A stretch of 64,000 nucleotides of DNA from Blastocatellia bacterium (lineage in GTDB: Bacteria > Acidobacteriota > Blastocatellia > UBA7656): the NCBI GenBank assembly GCA_045807725.1, contig JBJMGV010000126.1:28802-92801 (forward strand). The letters run 5' to 3'. Below, piece after piece: positions 36,783-53,285 of the stretch (positions are counted from its first letter, which is position 1; every line of letters begins with the position of its first letter). The notes under the pieces are model-generated. The model was not told the origin of the DNA and ran no database searches. It saw only the letters and a list, made by a program, of their open reading frames with translations. Both the position numbers and the translations under genes were made by a program.

Positions 36783-36998
36783 CAGAGCGTATCTGAGAAG
36801 CCCTGAAGGGGCGCGATTCAATAGCCCAGCCCAACGGGCTGGGTACACCCAGCGACCATTCGGCAAGCCCTGAAAGGGCGTAATAGGTGATCGGTTATTG
36901 CGCCCTTTCAGGGCTTGGCGGTTAGCCCCGCCGCTCACCCAGGGCGCTGCCCTGGGCTGTCGAATCCCGCCCCTTCAGGGCTTCTCAGATACGCTCTA
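36783..36998. repeat. ~220-bp MITE-like palindromic element, copy A
   Basis: Terminal inverted repeats agagcgtatctgagaagccctgaaggggcg ... cgccccttcagggcttctcagatacgctctatag; internal aagccctgaaagggcg hairpins; about 90% identical to the inverted copy at 53003-53222. Confidence 0.65.
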
Positions 36999-36999
36999 T

Positions 37000-37335
37000 A
37001 GTTCACGATGCAATAGTTGATGCAAGCTCCGTCAGGAGCGCAATGTTTATAGTAACGCGGGCGGTTTAATCTTCAAGCTCCGTCAGGAGCGCGATGTTTA
37101 TAGCCAACGATGCAATAGATCAAACAAGCTCCGTTAGGAGCGCGATGTTCATAGCTCACGATGCCACAGATGATGCAAGCTCCGTTAGGAGCGCAATGTT
37201 TATAGATATGGCAGAAGGATGTGACGAAGCCCCGTAGGGGCGCGATGTTGACATCACGCTCCTGACGGAGCTTGCTTCTTCTATTGCATCGGTAACTATA
37301 AACATTGCGCTCCTGACGGAGCTTGGGGAACTATC
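37000..37335. repeat. ~51-bp tandem repeat array (4-5 units plus inverted units)
   Basis: Unit gatgcaagctccgtcaggagcgcaatgtttatag plus a ~21-bp variable linker; each unit has a gctcc-gtca-ggagc hairpin. Confidence 0.7.
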
Positions 37336-37445
37336 AGCTATCAACTGATCACTGGCCACTAACCAATGACCACTGACAACCGGCCAGTGGCCATTGACAA
37401 CCGGCCACTGACTACTGGCCACTGGCCAGTGGTCACCACTCCTGG
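37336..37445. repeat. (CCAGTGG/CCACTGG)-type heptamer array
   Basis: cactggccactaaccaatgaccactgacaaccggccagtggccattgacaaccggccactgactactggccactggccagtggtcacc. Confidence 0.6.
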
Positions 37446-37505
37446 CACATTCGTTGCTCCTTCACGACTGGCTGAAGCAATTTGCATTGAAAGCGAGCAA
37501 AGTGG

Positions 37506-38633
37506 ATGGCCAGCACGGTACAGGCGATTGATTCTGTTAAGCCGAAGTCGAATGGCGCGCACTCGACGGCGGTAAAGACGGCGCGCGAGTTGGTTGAGCA
37601 CGGCCAGCGCGCGCGGTGGTGGCGGCGGCGCGGCACGAAACAGAAAGGTTTTTGGTATGAAGATTACAAAGGCTGCCGCATTAACGATCAATCCCAGCTT
37701 GAGCGCATACGGGCGCTTGTCATTCCACCGGCCTGGACTCACGTCCGCATCGCGCCTTCTCCGCGCAGTCGCTTGCAAGTGGTCGGCATAGACACGGCAG
37801 GCCGCATTCAGTATAAGTACCACCCGTCTTTCGCGGCGCGACAACAGCAGAAGAAATACGCCAAGATCGAACGCTTCGGCGAAGCGCTGCCGGCCTTGCG
37901 TCGCGTGACCAATGAGCACATCGCGCTCAATGGCTTTCCGCGTGAGCGCGTGCTGGCCATCATCATTCGTTTAATCAACGATCTCTACCTGCGCGTCGGC
38001 TCCGAGATGAGCGTCAAGCGTTACCGCACCTATGGCGTGACGACGCTGCGCAATCGCCACCTTGATATCAGGCGTGGTGGGCAACTCGTCTTTAGCTTCG
38101 TCGGCAAACATCACATACGCCACCGCCGCATCATCGTGGATGAAGAACTGGCGACGGTGATGCGCGACTTGAAGGCGTTGGGCGGGCCGAAGCTGTTCGA
38201 GTACACCGACGACAACGGCAAGATTAAACCCATCACGCCGCGCGACGTGAACGACTACATCAAAGCGGCGGCGGGTCCGGAGTTTTCCGCGAAAGACTTT
38301 CGCACGTGGGGCGGCTCGCTGCTGGCGGCGATACGGCTGGCCGAGATCGGGCAGGCCGAAAACGAGCGACAACTGAAGCGCAACATCGTGCAGGCGGTCA
38401 AGCAAGTCGCCGAGCACCTCGGTAATACGCCGACCGTCTGCCGCAGTTGCTACATTCACCCGGCGGTCATCGAGCGGTACAACGAAGGCGTGACGCTCGA
38501 AGCCTTCAGGCCAAAACGCAGCCGCCGCATACGTCGCTTGCAGCCTGAATACGAGCCTGAGGAGTTAGCGTTGCTGAAGCTCTTTCAGACGAGCGGCAGG
38601 GCGATGAATGTGACCGAGAAGCAAGCGGCCTGA
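37506..38633 (+). CDS. DNA topoisomerase IB (poxvirus-like bacterial TopIB)
   Basis: ...KDFRTWGG... and ...CRSCYIHP... (catalytic Tyr) motifs; the size (375 aa) fits bacterial TopIB. Confidence 0.8.
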   Translation: MASTVQAIDSVKPKSNGAHSTAVKTARELVEHGQRARWWRRRGTKQKGFWYEDYKGCRINDQSQLERIRALVIPPAWTHVRIAPSPRSRLQVVGIDTAGRIQYKYHPSFAARQQQKKYAKIERFGEALPALRRVTNEHIALNGFPRERVLAIIIRLINDLYLRVGSEMSVKRYRTYGVTTLRNRHLDIRRGGQLVFSFVGKHHIRHRRIIVDEELATVMRDLKALGGPKLFEYTDDNGKIKPITPRDVNDYIKAAAGPEFSAKDFRTWGGSLLAAIRLAEIGQAENERQLKRNIVQAVKQVAEHLGNTPTVCRSCYIHPAVIERYNEGVTLEAFRPKRSRRIRRLQPEYEPEELALLKLFQTSGRAMNVTEKQAA

Positions 38634-50983: not shown

Positions 50984-51404
50984 CCAGTGGTCAGTGGTCA
51001 GTGGTCAGTTGATAGTTGATAGTTGACAGTTGATTGTTGATTGTTGTGAGTTGTGAGCGGTGAGTTGATAGTTGTGAGTTGATAGTTTCCCAAGCTCCGT
51101 CAGGAGCGCAATGTTTATAGATATAGCTGAAGGATGTGACGAAGCTCCGTCAGGAGCGAGATGTTTATAGTTACCGATGCAATAGATGATGCAAGCTCCG
51201 TCAGGAGCGGGATGTTGACATTGCGCCCCTACGGGGCTTCGTCCTTTCTATCAGCCATTTCTATAAACAGGTCGTCCCTACGGGACTCACTGGTCACTGG
51301 CAACTCATAACTATCAGCTCACAACTATCAGCTCACAAGTATCACCTATCAACTATCAACTGACCACTGGCCACTAGCCACTAGTCACTGATCACTAACC
51401 ACTG
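50984..51404. repeat. Composite palindromic repeat region: heptamer arrays flanking ~51-bp tandem units
   Basis: (GTGGTCA)n, (GTTGATA/GTTGTGA)n, three caagctccgtcaggagcg...tttatag units, an inverted unit, then mirrored heptamer arrays. Confidence 0.7.
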
Positions 51405-52343
51405 ATGAACGATCTTCTTCACATCAATGAAAGAGTGCGCCGCGCGATAGAGACGAATCGAGCCGTGGTGGCGCTTGAGTCAACCGTGATCGCACACGGC
51501 TTGCCGCGCCCGCTCAATCTCGAAACCGCGCACGCCTGCGAAGCCGCCGTGACGCGTGAAGGCGCAAGTCCGGCGACCATCGGCATCGTCGCCGGGCGAT
51601 TGACGGTCGGGTTGAGTGACGAAGAGGTCGCGCGCTTTGGCGACGGGCAAGCGCCGGACGGCGGCGCGATTGAAAAGGTCGGCTTGAATAACATGGCCGG
51701 CGTCATCGAGCGTCGCGCCTGGGGCGCAACTACCGTAGCCGCGACGATGCGGATTGCCGCGCTTGCCGGCCTGCGAGTCTTTGCCACAGGCGGCATCGGC
51801 GGCATTCATCGCGGCGCGGGCGAAACGTTCGACGTATCCGCAGACCTGACTGCGCTCGGTCGCCTGCCGCTGGTCTGCGTCTGCGCCGGCGCGAAAGCGA
51901 TTCTCGATCTACCCAAGACCGTCGAGTACCTGGAAACGCTCGGTGTGCCGATTGTAGGTTATCGCACAAACGAGTTCCCTGCCTTCTACTCCCCGACGAG
52001 CGGCCTCGGCGTAGACATCAAAGTGGATTCGCCGGAAGAAGCCGCCCGTGTGGCGTTGAATCACTGGCGCACGGGTGGCGCGTCGGCAGTGCTGGTCTGC
52101 GCTCCTGTGCCTGAGCCGCACGCGATGGCTCACGAAGAAGTTGACTGCGCTGTCGAGCAAGCCATCGTCTTAGCCGAACGCAGCGGCATTCGCGGCAAAG
52201 CATTAACGCCTTTCCTGCTGGCCCGCTTGAAAGAGTTGACCGCAGGCCACACGCTCGATGCGAATCGCGCCTTGCTCGTGAATAACGCGGAGATCGCCGC
52301 GCAAATTGCCGTGCATCTGGTCAATCTGTCGCGGCAAGGTTGA
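51405..52343 (+). CDS. psuG: Pseudouridine-5'-phosphate glycosidase
   Basis: ...VVALESTVIAHGLPRP...FATGGIGGIHRG... PsuG signature. Confidence 0.9.
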   Translation: MNDLLHINERVRRAIETNRAVVALESTVIAHGLPRPLNLETAHACEAAVTREGASPATIGIVAGRLTVGLSDEEVARFGDGQAPDGGAIEKVGLNNMAGVIERRAWGATTVAATMRIAALAGLRVFATGGIGGIHRGAGETFDVSADLTALGRLPLVCVCAGAKAILDLPKTVEYLETLGVPIVGYRTNEFPAFYSPTSGLGVDIKVDSPEEAARVALNHWRTGGASAVLVCAPVPEPHAMAHEEVDCAVEQAIVLAERSGIRGKALTPFLLARLKELTAGHTLDANRALLVNNAEIAAQIAVHLVNLSRQG

Positions 52344-52911
52344 GCATCATCTGTTCGCCCGCTAACGTGTGCCGCCCGGTCAATCGCTGCTCGTGTTCAA
52401 GCAGCCACTTCTTGCGCCACAGCCCGCCGCCATAGCCGCAGAGGTCGCCATCGGCGCGAATCACTCGATGACAAGGGATGACGATGGCCAGGCAGTTGCG
52501 GCCATTGGCTCGACCGACGGCGCGCACGGCGCGCGGGTTACCGACTTGCTCGGCGAGTTGCAGGTAAGACCACGTCCGGCCCGGTGCAATCGTCTGTAGC
52601 TTTGCCCACACATCGCGCTCAAAGGCTGTGCCGCCGATGACCAGCGGAATCGTAAACGATAGCGAGCGGCCCGCGAAATAATCCTCCAGTTCGCGGCTGA
52701 TCTGATTGAGGTGAGCGTTATTGCCCGGCACAACCTCGCATTGAACGCGCGACTGTATGCCGGTGATCTCACTCTCCAGTTCGCGGCGGTCTACGAATTC
52801 GAGCAGGTGCAGTCCGTCCTGATCGGCTAAGGCGAGCATCGCACCGAGCGGCGTTTCGATTTGACGTGAGTGTAAGCGGGGCGTCGTCGTAGGCGTTGGC
52901 AGCTTGTCCAT
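52321..52911 (-). CDS. ogt: Methylated-DNA--protein-cysteine methyltransferase
   Basis: ...IPCHRVIRADG... active-site PCHR motif; C-terminus overlaps the psuG end convergently. Confidence 0.8.
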   Translation of the reverse strand: MDKLPTPTTTPRLHSRQIETPLGAMLALADQDGLHLLEFVDRRELESEITGIQSRVQCEVVPGNNAHLNQISRELEDYFAGRSLSFTIPLVIGGTAFERDVWAKLQTIAPGRTWSYLQLAEQVGNPRAVRAVGRANGRNCLAIVIPCHRVIRADGDLCGYGGGLWRKKWLLEHEQRLTGRHTLAGEQMMLNLAATD

Positions 52912-52917
52912 AACCGT

Positions 52918-53285
52918 ATTGTAAATGATGAACGACGAATGATGAATGATGAATGATGAATTGAAGAGGAAAAGGAAGCCGAATCATCTAAGAAAGAGGG
53001 GTCATCTATAGAGCGTGTCTGAAAAACCCTGAAGGGGCGCGATTCGACAGCCCAGGGCATCGCCCTGAGTGAGCGGCGGGGCTAACCGCCAAGCCCTGAA
53101 AGGGCGCAATAACCGATCACCTAGTGCGCCCTTTCAGGGCTTACGGGATTGTCGCTTTGTGTACCCAGCCCGTTGGGCTGGGCTATTGAATCGCGCCCCT
53201 TCAGGGCTTCTCAGACACGCTCTATAAACAATCCCCTGCCGCTATTCATCATTCATCATCCATCGTTCATCATTCTCTTCTTGCT
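52918..53285. repeat. MITE-like element copy B (53003-53222, inverted relative to copy A) nested between mirrored (TGATGAA)n / (TTCATCA)n heptamer arrays
   Basis: atgatgaacgacgaatgatgaatgatgaatgatgaa ... [element] ... attcatcattcatcatccatcgttcatcatt. Confidence 0.65.

Follow-up and report, generated by a model that had tools for sequence, protein, structure and literature searches.

We identified in the window (the whole 64-kb stretch of Blastocatellia DNA that was analyzed) two inverted copies, A and B, of a 218-bp element which, we argue, is a head-to-head pair of REP-type hairpin arms, neither a gene nor primarily an RNA. Judged by its sequence, the element appears to be the arm–Y1 gene–arm arrangement of other bacteria minus the gene. 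It is therefore probably a REPIN-like doublet, non-autonomous and mobilized in single-stranded form by a Y1 enzyme whose gene lies elsewhere in the genome.

Identity and ends of the two copies

Copy A starts 5 nt past the TAG stop codon (36776–36778) of a MerR/B12-binding regulator gene, and copy B sits between divergent genes for an MGMT (52321–52911, minus strand) and a cytochrome-c-peroxidase/beta-helix protein (53363–55750, plus strand) (Table 1). A sequence-only reading of this DNA had described two inverted copies with ~90% identity, which was borne out across ~220 nt. A repeat search of the window returned inverted arms at 36784–37006 and 53001–53223 (223 nt, 92% complementary), and the column identity of 92% in a MAFFT alignment of copy A (plus) with copy B (minus), together with 93% across 218 nt by blastn, set aside the concern that the identity might lie far below the estimate made by eye. 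The proposed terminal inverted repeats also exist, being perfect over 31 nt in copy A, and both ends of both copies have the 21-mer CTGAGAAGCCCTGAAGGGGCG, which gives four occurrences in the window, with none expected from shuffles. Likewise, the internal AAGCCCTGAAAGGGCG hairpins were found in the copies, and the claimed lack of coding capacity held, as an ORF scan of both copies revealed no ORF of at least 80 aa.

Both copies are themselves imperfect palindromes (for copy A, 36784–36885 versus 36896–36997, 102 nt and 79% complementary; in copy B, 114-nt arms that are 75% complementary), and because of this the two copies still align at 76% in direct orientation. Their asymmetric h1 stems and spacers show that they are truly inverted relative to each other. 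The outer terminal segment AGAGCGTATCTGAG is restricted to this Blastocatellia subfamily and was missing from a related copy in a relative (L048) and from the copies in other phyla, and the exact 29-nt terminal pattern of the subfamily was matched on only two metagenome contigs. A left flank of ...GATGTTTAT directly before AGAGCGT was common to three independent copies in the same orientation (copy B, L046 and L047); the left flank of copy A (AGTC) is unlike it.

Table 1. Coordinates of the element copies, their parts and related features in the window
Feature	Positions	Strand	Details
Third doublet, diverged	18091–18299		Same architecture; true GTAG/CTAC tags
Cluster of related modules	19316–19722		Repeats, one arm, central hairpin, tandem units
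Copy A	36784–37001	+	Unit common to both copies
Copy A outer terminal segment	36784–36797	+	AGAGCGTATCTGAG; inverted partner 36984–36997
Copy A left arm	36795–36880	−	R1 81.7 bits; Acido-Lenti-1 41 bits at 36799–36843; on − strand, X 36865–36880, 21-nt spacer, h1 36825–36843, linker, h2 36798–36813
Copy A left-arm h1	36825–36843		Stem CCCAGCCC/GGGCTGGG; tag ATAG 36821–36824 on + strand
Copy A central loop	36881–36900	+	20 nt, between X' and X
Copy A right arm	36901–36986	+	R1 83 bits; Acido-Lenti-1 40.9 bits at 36938–36982; X 36901–36916, spacer, h1 36938–36956, linker, h2 36968–36983
h1-less module array adjoining copy A	36997–37325		AAGCTCCGTCAGGAGCGCRATGTTTATAG plus 22-nt spacer, period 51 bp; inverted copies after
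Second h1-less module cluster	51091–51291		Heptamer arrays on either side (50985–51087, 51304–51361)
Heptamer array (AATGATG)n	52924–52961	+	Beside copy B; inverted partner 53244–53275
Copy B	53006–53223	−	Inverted partner of copy A, 92–93% identical
Copy B arm, counterpart of A right arm	53021–53106	−	R1 79.6 bits; Acido-Lenti-1 26.4 bits, under threshold
Copy B arm, counterpart of A left arm	53127–53212	+	R1 84.1 bits; Acido-Lenti-1 41 bits at 53164–53208
Heptamer array (ATTCATC)n	53244–53275	+	Other side of copy B
Sigma-70-type promoter match	53286–53313	+	TTGACA-16-TATAAT, perfect; for peroxidase gene

Architecture and conservation of the arms

Each arm is composed of three small hairpins, X, h1 and h2, in fixed order and spacing. 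Hairpin X (CGCCCYTTCAGGGCTT) is followed by ~21 nt, then by h1, an 8-bp stem with CTA and ~9 nt after it that on the opposite strand reads as a (G/A)TAG-tagged REP, and finally by h2 (CGCCCCTTCRGGGCT). The right-arm h1 stem of copy A (CCCAGGGC/GCCCTGGG) is unlike that of the left arm, with self-pairing retained. As single-stranded DNA, copy A had a fold of −91.8 kcal/mol (z = −16) in which both h1 hairpins fold locally. Three of the four window arms passed the gathering score of 37 for the Rfam family Acido-Lenti-1 (RF01687), at 41, 41 and 40.9 bits, and the fourth scored 26 bits; the match covers h1, the CUA linker and h2.

R1, a covariance model of a single arm derived from 23 arms, identified 75 arms in 37 loci of several phyla, which by record title were Acidobacteriota (Terriglobales, Bryobacterales, Thermoanaerobaculales), Planctomycetota, Verrucomicrobiota, Bacteroidota and Brocadiaceae. 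In the arm alignment, which was fitted to the model itself, 96.2% of cells pair versus 80.6% in shuffles, both-sided changes occur in 16 of 17 pairs, and double changes number 149 versus 23 in shuffles; pairing in slid controls was only 26–63%. The 42 genome loci were chosen by a 19-nt word containing the X hairpin, and the conservation of X is thus partly built in. Twenty arm pairs are arranged head-to-head as doublets, their loops measuring 12–42 nt, and roughly half of the doublets have two unlike h1 stems, each with 8 of 8 pairs. Therefore, it is the local hairpin that is conserved and not arm-to-arm pairing.

A Y1 transposase gene beside the arms in other lineages

A gene for a 150-aa Y1/HUH IS200-like transposase adjoins arms at six independent loci in other lineages, and at four of these it lies exactly between two arms, a position that corresponds to the central loop of copy A. 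At one locus (L009), the X' and X hairpins of a doublet directly enclose a 150-aa ORF; it matched Pfam Y1_Tnp (2.8e-25) and passed NCBIfam IS200 (63 bits, cutoff 55), and its relatives in the PDB are the ISDra2 and IS608 TnpA proteins. Homologs of this ORF were found at three other loci (L053-57, L058/59 and L060), where a minus-strand arm ends ~20 nt upstream of the ATG and a plus-strand arm starts ~10 nt past the stop codon, with R1 E-values of 1e-13 to 1e-17. Two further Y1 genes beside arms are from Terriglobales (L003) and Rhodopirellula (L024). Among the loci fetched solely by the 19-nt DNA word, 3 of 42 have a Y1 gene within ~150 nt of an arm. The arm-flanked proteins have the motifs DHVH, WQ and Y---Q--HH, and the arm-associated enzyme scores below the cutoff of REP_Tyr_transpos, the NCBIfam model of canonical REP-associated transposases (28 bits, cutoff 80). 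In each of the six places shown, of 17 contigs, one Y1 gene (P0276) occupied the same hemE/hemD-ferrochelatase site. No Y1 or other transposase gene was found within the 64-kb window.

Movement of the doublet can be envisaged by analogy to IS200/IS605 TnpA and RAYTs. In single-stranded DNA, such as the lagging-strand template, the arms would fold to hairpins. These would be bound by a dimer of a Y1 enzyme from another part of the genome, which would cut and rejoin the single strand at the element ends. The doublet would then be moved or copied to a new single-stranded site, which in the window subfamily would usually adjoin ...ATGTTTAT(AG) of a related h2-type module. We infer that this genome encodes the cognate Y1 enzyme; its action on these hairpins and the positions of the cuts at the element ends are likewise predictions from analogy.

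An alternative that we consider unlikely is that the arms are a structured small RNA or a cis-acting RNA (terminator, stabilizer or RNase III site), with the palindrome representing two convergent copies. Long hairpins in transcripts can influence mRNA fate, and copy A is located directly after a stop codon. Such a role is implied by the Rfam annotation of Acido-Lenti-1 ("Gene; sRNA"), with matches above the gathering score, the covariation is strong, and the motif was rated as probably RNA by Weinberg et al. 2010 (PMC2864571). However, the arms, as head-to-head doublets, are equally frequent on the two strands, and their stem mismatches have no strand bias (14 G-T versus ~15 A-C, the weak h2 closing pair excluded). 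In addition, promoter-like or terminator-like consensus sequences are absent in or beside copies A and B, copies have been gained or lost between close relatives, and it is a single-strand-DNA transposase gene that the arms flank. An RNA role does not exclude the REPIN-like doublet because REP-type elements often have secondary effects at the RNA level.

Related modules and presence in relatives

The window has other modules of the same kind. The diverged third doublet has the h1 stems CCAGAGG/CCTCTGG and CCAGACG/CGTCTGG, and the cluster at 19316–19722 is composed of four 27-bp repeats, three 52-bp tandem h1-CTA-h2 units, one arm (Rfam match 19428–19473, minus strand) and a long central hairpin (19487–19555). 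The 51-bp array that the sequence-only reading had called CRISPR-like does adjoin copy A, the array proper (36997–37205) beginning at its right end, but its identity as a CRISPR was rejected: it consists of h1-less modules of the same kind and its spacers resemble each other. The heptamer arrays reported beside copy B are present on both of its sides. Nested palindromes growing outward were observed around copy B.

Relatives with DNA that is 84–91% identical lack both window copies at the corresponding sites. The copies therefore behave as gained or lost DNA and not as conserved local sequence, which answers the question of whether their positions are conserved among relatives. The related copy in L048 (17142–17330) is at a third site, unoccupied in both the window and L050, and gain or loss between close relatives was thus seen at three sites. 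The composite of copy B and its arrays (52924–53282) corresponds to ~41 bp in relatives; the promoter match just outside it is kept in them. The empty sites are not clean, as the adjoining sequence differs too and renders the boundaries and any duplication unreadable. Inversion of the 16-kb interval between the copies had been proposed, but there was no sign of it: gene order and orientation are the same as in relatives without both copies.

It is quite improbable that the element is not mobile as a unit and arose as intergenic palindromes assembled and copied in place, through replication slippage, repair templated by hairpins and gene conversion between similar modules, copies A and B being products of ectopic recombination. 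The unclean empty sites, the surrounding composites of h1-less modules and heptamer arrays, variable even among relatives that are 85–90% identical, and the nested palindromes around copy B are in keeping with such a history. However, the two 218-bp copies have sharp common ends and unrelated flanks 16 kb apart, more copies of the subfamily occur in unrelated contexts on soil contigs, and the architecture is conserved across phyla with a Y1 gene at its center.

Least probable of all, and already disfavored, is a classical MITE, a deletion derivative of a DDE-transposase IS (e.g., IS630/Tc1 type) moved by cut-and-paste through recognition of its ~30-bp terminal inverted repeats with duplication of a TA or TATA target, for although copy A's perfect 31-nt repeats, the TATA adjoining several element ends and the small, non-coding, variably present element would suit it, conserved covarying hairpins, as two inverted arms around a central palindrome, span the whole body, which a DDE MITE does not need, the L048 copy keeps its hairpins without the outer terminal segment, and the gene-carrying relatives found all encode a Y1/HUH IS200-like and not a DDE enzyme. 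TATA is unscorable as a duplication because it is palindromic and continues the element's own palindrome. The suggested CTATAG target duplication was accordingly not upheld, TATA/ATAG belonging to the palindrome and copy A's left flank (AGTC) lacking it. The term MITE-like thus suits a short, non-coding, repeated element with terminal inverted repeats and variable presence, but not in the classical sense of terminal repeats with target duplication.

Comparison with known systems

The enterobacterial ERIC/IRU, the Correia elements of Neisseria and YPAL of Yersinia are long imperfect-palindrome MITEs, and the window element is like them in being a 100–220 bp, intergenic, imperfect palindrome with TA-rich junctions; to our knowledge, they have neither a modular covarying three-hairpin arm nor a Y1 partner. 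With IS200/IS605 and the palindrome-associated derivatives (PATEs), the system has in common a Y1/HUH enzyme (NCBIfam IS200 passed), subterminal hairpins and possible insertion beside a fixed short sequence without duplication. In contrast to IS200/IS605, its ends are long inverted repeats instead of similar hairpins on one strand, tnpB is absent, and the gene copy, instead of being scattered, holds a single fixed site across many samples.

Assigned on motifs and not by a tree, the arm-flanked proteins probably belong to TnpA-Y1 subclass 1.2, reported to have no REPs and no typical terminal structures and to be mostly from Cyanobacteria and Bacteroidetes (Quentin et al. 2018, PMC6006769). They are alike in length (150 aa), motifs (DH[VI]H, WQ, YI.NQ..HH) and low copy number, whereas here arms are present at six of six loci. 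Rfam (RF01687) presents Acido-Lenti-1, which has 89 representatives and covariation in its supplement entry, as a free-standing sRNA from Acidobacteria and Lentisphaerae whose function is unknown (Weinberg et al. 2010, PMC2864571). Here, unlike in that description, the motif makes up half of an arm in a DNA palindrome, it flanks a Y1 gene, and it occurs in more phyla.

The system also resembles REPINs and RAYT/TnpA-REP (Bertels & Rainey 2011, PMC3116915; Nunvar 2010; Ton-Hoang 2012). Like REPINs, the element consists of two short, inverted tagged palindromes around a spacer, is extragenic, forms one long hairpin and varies in presence between relatives, and, as in a REPtron, these palindromes also flank a single-copy Y1/HUH gene. 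The differences are that an arm has three hairpins instead of one, that the enzyme has DHVH, WQ and Y---Q--HH instead of the class-2 RAYT motif Y---NP, and that nearly identical hairpin sequences of the arm family recur in several phyla, in contrast to classical REPs, each of which is confined to its own lineage. GTAG repeats were reported from PVC, Cyanobacteria and Chloroflexi but not Acidobacteria, for which "TIRYT" genes flanked by terminal inverted repeats were described (Di Nocera et al. 2013, PMC3733652), and the hairpin sequences of this family had no match in the supplements of that study. The tag differs, being ATAG/ACAG in copies A and B and GTAG only in the 18091–18299 element. As in the GTAG REPs (PMC3733652), however, h1 has an 8-bp stem, a loop of 3–4 nt and, at one end, an unpaired (G/A/T)TAG, some dimers combine two different stems (heterodimers), and, as in their HH dimers, the tags are outermost with the stem-loops at the spacer ends.

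Two inverted copies of a palindromic doublet

The ~220-bp inverted pair that the sequence-only reading had put at ~90% identity is real, with values of 92-93% over 218-223 nt: a repeat search of the window returned inverted arms at 36784-37006 and 53001-53223 (223 nt, 92% complementary), and copies A and B were 92% identical by MAFFT and 93% identical over 218 nt by blastn. Their sharp common ends (see table) delimit a unit that is itself an imperfect palindrome with ~100-nt arms at 75-79%. A direct-orientation alignment of the two copies is therefore also possible (76%); their asymmetric interior shows that they are inverted with respect to each other. 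Four instances of the terminal 21-mer were counted in the window, compared with none in shuffles. The terminal inverted repeats and the lack of coding capacity proposed in the same reading were borne out by a perfect 31-nt terminal inverted repeat in copy A and by the absence of any ORF of at least 80 aa inside either copy.

The gene preceding copy A encodes a MerR/B12-binding regulator, and copy A starts 5 nt beyond its stop codon; on the other side, 51-bp repeats and then heptamers separate copy A from topIB. The MGMT and cytochrome-c-peroxidase/beta-helix genes diverge from the intergenic region that contains copy B, with inverted heptamer arrays on both sides of the copy. The copies mark recently remodelled intergenic regions of this genome. 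Copy A abuts the regulator's stop codon, and sequence upstream of MGMT has been replaced by copy B and its heptamer arrays. Only ~13 nt separate this composite from the MGMT start codon; relatives share the TACAAT box found 6 nt before the ATG, but heptamer array now occupies the place expected for a -35 element, so the insertion may have changed MGMT expression. Database proteins most similar to those of the window carry the name Blastocatellia (Acidobacteriota) and are up to 93% identical.

Each copy consists of two head-to-head arms, (-) and (+), separated by 20 nt in both copies. Reading outward from the centre, an arm is composed of the hairpin X (CGCCCYTTCAGGGCTT), ~21 nt, the hairpin h1 (8-bp stem, 3-nt loop), CTA/CTG and ~9 nt, the hairpin h2 (CGCCCCTTCAGGGCTT) and, beyond it, a 14-nt outer segment (CTCAGAYACGCTCT). 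Folded as single-stranded DNA, copy A reached -91.8 kcal/mol (z = -16), with an outer stem, a central stem and two h1 hairpins that fold independently. Together, h1 and h2 correspond to the Rfam Acido-Lenti-1 motif (RF01687): three of the four arms of copies A and B scored 41.0, 41.0 and 40.9 bits, above the gathering threshold of 37 bits, and the fourth 26.4 bits. The opposite strand of h1 reads (A/G)TAG and then a palindrome, which is the form of the GTAG-tagged REPs (Di Nocera et al. 2013, PMC3733652). Copies A and B carry ATAG/ACAG as this tag, and the doublet at 18 kb carries GTAG. In all, the 64-kb window holds two copies, one diverged doublet and clusters of modules, all of them intergenic.

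Coordinates of the element, its modules and other features in the window
Position	Feature	Details
2523-2604; 55750-55790	AATCCAAAATC repeats	similar to the 49-nt inverted repeat
16170-16218; 55816-55864	49-nt inverted repeat (AGATTTTAGATTTTCATGGCTTAGCGCTTCGCGCCGGCGATTTTGGATT)	98% complementary, 39.6 kb apart; GATTTTG-type heptamers and GC hairpin
18091-18299	third complete doublet	true GTAG/CTAC tags
19316-19722	cluster	4 x 27-bp repeats; three tandem 52-bp h1-CTA-h2 units that differ in their stem sequences
19428-19473	further RF01687 match	
19487-19555	69-nt hairpin of the cluster	near-perfect
26248-26284; 31142-31173; 37344-37431; 41149-41217; 48855-48892; 50985-51087; 51304-51361; 52924-52961; 53244-53275	heptamer tandem arrays	intergenic
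28930-30642	570-aa protein	eCIS core domain (PF13699)
30842-30915	tRNA gene	beside the 570-aa protein
36784-37001 (+)	copy A	
36997-37325	51-bp array	29-nt modules AAGCTCCGTCAGGAGCGCRATGTTTATAG, 22-nt spacers
37316; ~51340; soil contig L046 330-400	repeated junction	module-GGAACTATCAACTATCAACTGACCACTGGCC
51091-51291	same 29-nt modules	
52911-52965 (-)	region upstream of MGMT	composite around copy B begins within it
53006-53223 (-)	copy B	
61042-63990	two adjacent paralogous genes	direct repeats, 1581-1587-bp spacing, 78-83% identity

The 51-bp array beside copy A had been described as CRISPR-like. This description was not upheld, as its 22-nt spacers are mutually similar (e.g., TTCACGATGCAATAGTTGATG and CTCACGATGCCACAGATGATG), its repeats continue as inverted copies and recur elsewhere in the window, and no cas gene was found among the ~30 largest window ORFs scanned, which included every large ORF near the array. 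The 29-nt modules align with an arm over its CTA-linker-h2 portion and lack h1 (18-36 bits with R1, our covariance model of one arm), and modules of this kind are present, in smaller number, at the matching site of the closest relative (L043 10940-11100).

Several other repeats were noted in the window. The heptamer units include GTCAGTG, AGTTGAT, TCAGAAG and AATGATG, and their arrays are often inverted pairs that bracket clusters of hairpin modules. The 49-nt inverted repeat probably represents another repeat family. The paralogous pair near the end of the window encodes Cu2_monoox_C-type proteins, based on synteny with L051, and is a tandem gene duplication.

A family of three-hairpin arms in several phyla

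The 19-mer GAGAAGCCCTGAAGGGGCG from the element's end matched 42 stretches in a one-genome-per-species collection, compared with ~4 matches expected by chance from our own arithmetic under uniform base composition. Acidobacteriota in the record titles of the 37 loci with arms (see below) comprise Terriglobales, Bryobacterales and Thermoanaerobaculales, and further titles name Planctomycetia, Phycisphaerae, Rhodopirellula, Brocadiaceae, Verrucomicrobiota, Saprospiraceae and Chitinophagaceae. In many of the stretches a short loop has X, h1 and h2 on either side, in the order and with the spacing of the window's copies; as the loci were selected by a word containing X, its conservation is partly built in, but h1, h2 and the spacing lie outside the word.

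R1, built from 23 arms and used with a cut-off of E <= 1e-4, identified 75 arms in 37 loci, including 20 arm pairs arranged as head-to-head doublets with loops of 12-42 nt. Across the 75 arms h1 has an 8-bp stem and a loop of 3-4 nt, with a consensus of ...GGGCTA that reads TAGCCC in reverse complement. In the alignment, which was fitted to R1, 96.2% of the cells at paired positions were paired versus 80.6% in shuffles, changes on both sides were found in 16 of the 17 pairs, and double changes numbered 149 cells versus 23 in shuffles; sliding the partners reduced pairing to 26-63%. The h1 stems differ between the two arms in 11 of 21 pairs compared (the 20 doublets and the gene-carrying pair of L009, a locus discussed below). 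In about nine of the 11, copies A and B among them, each h1 still pairs with itself fully or almost fully, and the remaining two involve an arm with a missing or truncated h1. It is therefore the local hairpin that is conserved, rather than complementarity from arm to arm.

Variants of the arm were also encountered. Seven contigs of one Planctomycetaceae MAG (L007, L008, L013, L016, L030, L037 and L042) have an h1'-X' half-arm with a conserved non-palindromic ~55-nt tail (ACAGAAAGCGTCCAGAGCGGGCAGACCCGCGAG...) in place of the second arm. They represent a separate variant of the family with one arm only. We considered whether the sequence downstream of X' is the end of an insertion sequence and rejected this, since similarity stops after ~75 nt with no shared gene beyond. 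An extra hairpin nested in the h1 loop (e.g., CCCAGGGCGGCGCTCTGCGGCTTCGCCGCGACGCTGTGCCCTGGG) is present in some copies from Planctomycetota and others (L017 7675-7936, L025 7493-7755, L031 3029-3274). In the copy on soil contig L046 (1-120), an unrelated palindromic element (GGGCAATGGCATTAAGTTAAG...CTTAACTTAATGCCATTGCCC) is inserted in the outer h2 hairpin; other elements may use hairpins of this family as targets. Rfam's authors also noted group II introns in the vicinity of the Acido-Lenti-1 motif.

Y1 transposase genes between the arms

At locus L009 the arms are 479 nt apart instead of ~20 nt, and the gap is exactly filled by an ORF of 150 aa. Its product matches Pfam Y1_Tnp (2.8e-25) and, with 63 bits, exceeds the cutoff of 55 of the NCBIfam IS200/IS605 transposase model. 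The solved relatives of this protein are the TnpA enzymes of ISDra2 and IS608. Its homologues at E <= 1e-20 number at least 7,969, and JGI gives many of these the name RayT. Three further loci fetched via these homologues (L053-57, L058/59, which is named Verrucomicrobiota, and L060) have the same plan, with arm(-) ending ~20 nt before the start codon, arm(+) beginning ~10 nt past the stop and R1 scores of 50-66 bits. A tblastn search over the loci revealed two more Y1 genes adjoining arms, L003 (Terriglobales) and L024 (Rhodopirellula), the latter with an RF01687 score of 50.9 bits ~70 nt from the gene; at the other arm-flanked Y1 genes the adjacent RF01687 matches are sub-threshold but significant. 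Overall, six loci, all from other lineages, have a Y1 gene adjoining arms, four of them with the gene between the two arms, and three of the 42 loci fetched by the DNA word alone have a Y1 gene within ~150 nt of an arm. Pfam scans found no transposase among ~30 proteins of the window.

The arm-flanked proteins are ~150 aa long and have in common the motifs DHVH, WQ and Y---Q--HH, a combination given as the signature of TnpA-Y1 subclass 1.2, which is listed without REPs (Quentin et al. 2018, PMC6006769); our assignment to that subclass is by motif only. One of these proteins, P0276, occurs on 17 contigs from different samples; the six genomic contexts examined all have hemE/hemD on one side of it and ferrochelatase on the other, so that it behaves as a fixed single-copy gene rather than a jumping IS.

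The arms could have a role as RNA, possibly coexisting with a REPIN-like one. However, arms use both strands, the copies have no promoter or terminator consensus, and the association with a transposase gene favors DNA; there is also no strand bias of wobble pairs, although this is uninformative about RNA as such.

Gain and loss between relatives

Between 34.7 and 57 kb, the window is collinear with syntenic contigs of relatives (84-91% DNA identity), and the alignments have only two interruptions, at 36785/37176 and 52923/53283. The window has a MerR-topIB spacer of 727 bp; that of L043, with h1-less modules and heptamers but without the 218-bp element, measures 338 bp, and that of L045, without any repeats, 69 bp. 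Similarly, MGMT and the peroxidase gene are 451 bp apart in the window, compared with 133 bp (L048) and 147 bp (L050) in relatives. A 78%-identical copy lacking the outer 14-nt segments is located downstream of DAHP synthase in L048, a site with no copy in the window or L050. Each of the three sites is occupied in only one of the genomes compared. The copies had also been described as substrates for inversion of the 16-kb interval between them, but its gene order and orientation match those of relatives that lack both copies, and there is thus no sign of inversion.

The suggestion that the element is mobile is favored by the sites that are empty in relatives, but a clean target-site duplication did not emerge: the surroundings of the empty sites have changed too, so that no target duplication is scoreable, and the TATA at the element ends is part of the palindrome itself. 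The left flank ...GATGTTTAT is common to three independent copies in common orientation (copy B and those of soil contigs L046 and L047) and is the tail of an h1-less module, whereas the left flank of copy A, AGTC, is unlike the other three. A metagenome scan recovered the 29-nt terminal pattern in two contigs only, too few to define a target site.

These observations bear on the earlier label of the element as MITE-like. Small size, terminal inverted repeats and variable presence all fit a classical DDE-type MITE, but we disfavor this interpretation: the interior is conserved, the flanks provide no scoreable duplication, the gene-carrying relatives encode Y1_Tnp rather than a DDE enzyme, and no DDE gene was found among the window ORFs scanned. 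Purely local generation by slippage or conversion is consistent with the messy composites but does not fit the sharp ends shared in unrelated flanks.

The glgC/psuG neighbourhood also varies between relatives (L048 600-2500 and 5889-9215 and L050 1-5635, compared with 47900-52350 in the window). L048 has TIR_2-domain and DJC28_CD genes and a 1108-aa AAA/TPR protein there, L050 has SIR2, VWA, AAA, iSTAND and caspase-like genes, and the window has none of these. The neighbourhood looks like a defence-gene hotspot.

A probable REPIN-like doublet and its comparison with known systems

The directly observed architecture, covariation, association with Y1 genes in other lineages and gain and loss between relatives make a REPIN-like doublet, the non-autonomous form of a unit with a Y1 gene between arms, the best-supported identity of the 218-bp element. 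By analogy with IS200/IS605 TnpA and RAYT enzymes, whose biochemistry is established (summarised in PMC6006769), a Y1 dimer would bind the hairpins once the single-stranded DNA has folded, and would then cut and rejoin at the element ends. That this genome encodes such an enzyme is inferred, as are the hairpin it would recognise, its cut sites and its target. More broadly, we see even chances that Acido-Lenti-1 is not an sRNA but the DNA hairpin substrate (REP) of a very large cross-phylum group of 150-aa Y---Q--HH Y1/HUH enzymes (TnpA-Y1 subclass 1.2), the two together forming a REPIN-RAYT-like system with three-hairpin arms in Acidobacteriota, PVC and Bacteroidota, of which copies A and B would be non-autonomous passengers.

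REPINs, dimers of GTAG REPs and domestication of Y1 enzymes are already known, and the element is therefore ordinary in kind. We found no literature linking Acido-Lenti-1 to REPs or Y1 enzymes, which is weak evidence of novelty as coverage was incomplete. Relative to that incomplete literature, the Acido-Lenti-1 'sRNA' as an arm of a doublet, the fixed three-hairpin arm design across phyla and the arms flanking subclass-1.2-type Y1 genes appear to be new. If true, an orphan Rfam family would gain a concrete identity, with caution advisable against annotating it as sRNA genes, and a widespread Y1/HUH subclass of obscure role would gain cognate DNA substrates. REPIN-RAYT-type systems have been studied mainly in Proteobacteria and, if our reading is confirmed, they would extend to abundant soil and aquatic phyla, where near-identical hairpins in distant lineages would represent a useful case for studying the spread or persistence of such systems.

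REPIN units are short imperfect palindromes of 20-40 nt that have, on one side, a conserved GTAG-like tetranucleotide left unpaired. The doublet resembles REPIN/REP-RAYT systems in that h1 is a short palindrome with a GTAG-like tag and that two inverted units with a short spacer are able to form one hairpin. It differs from an IS200/IS605 insertion sequence, which has its own tnpA and often tnpB too, as the 218-bp copies have no tnpA. The arm-linked enzymes are also unlike the RAYT clade (class 2, Y---NP) in having Y---Q--HH, and the L009 protein scored 28 bits with NCBIfam REP_Tyr_transpos, below its cutoff of 80. The working of the doublet would therefore be REPIN-like, with a partner that is not a canonical RAYT.
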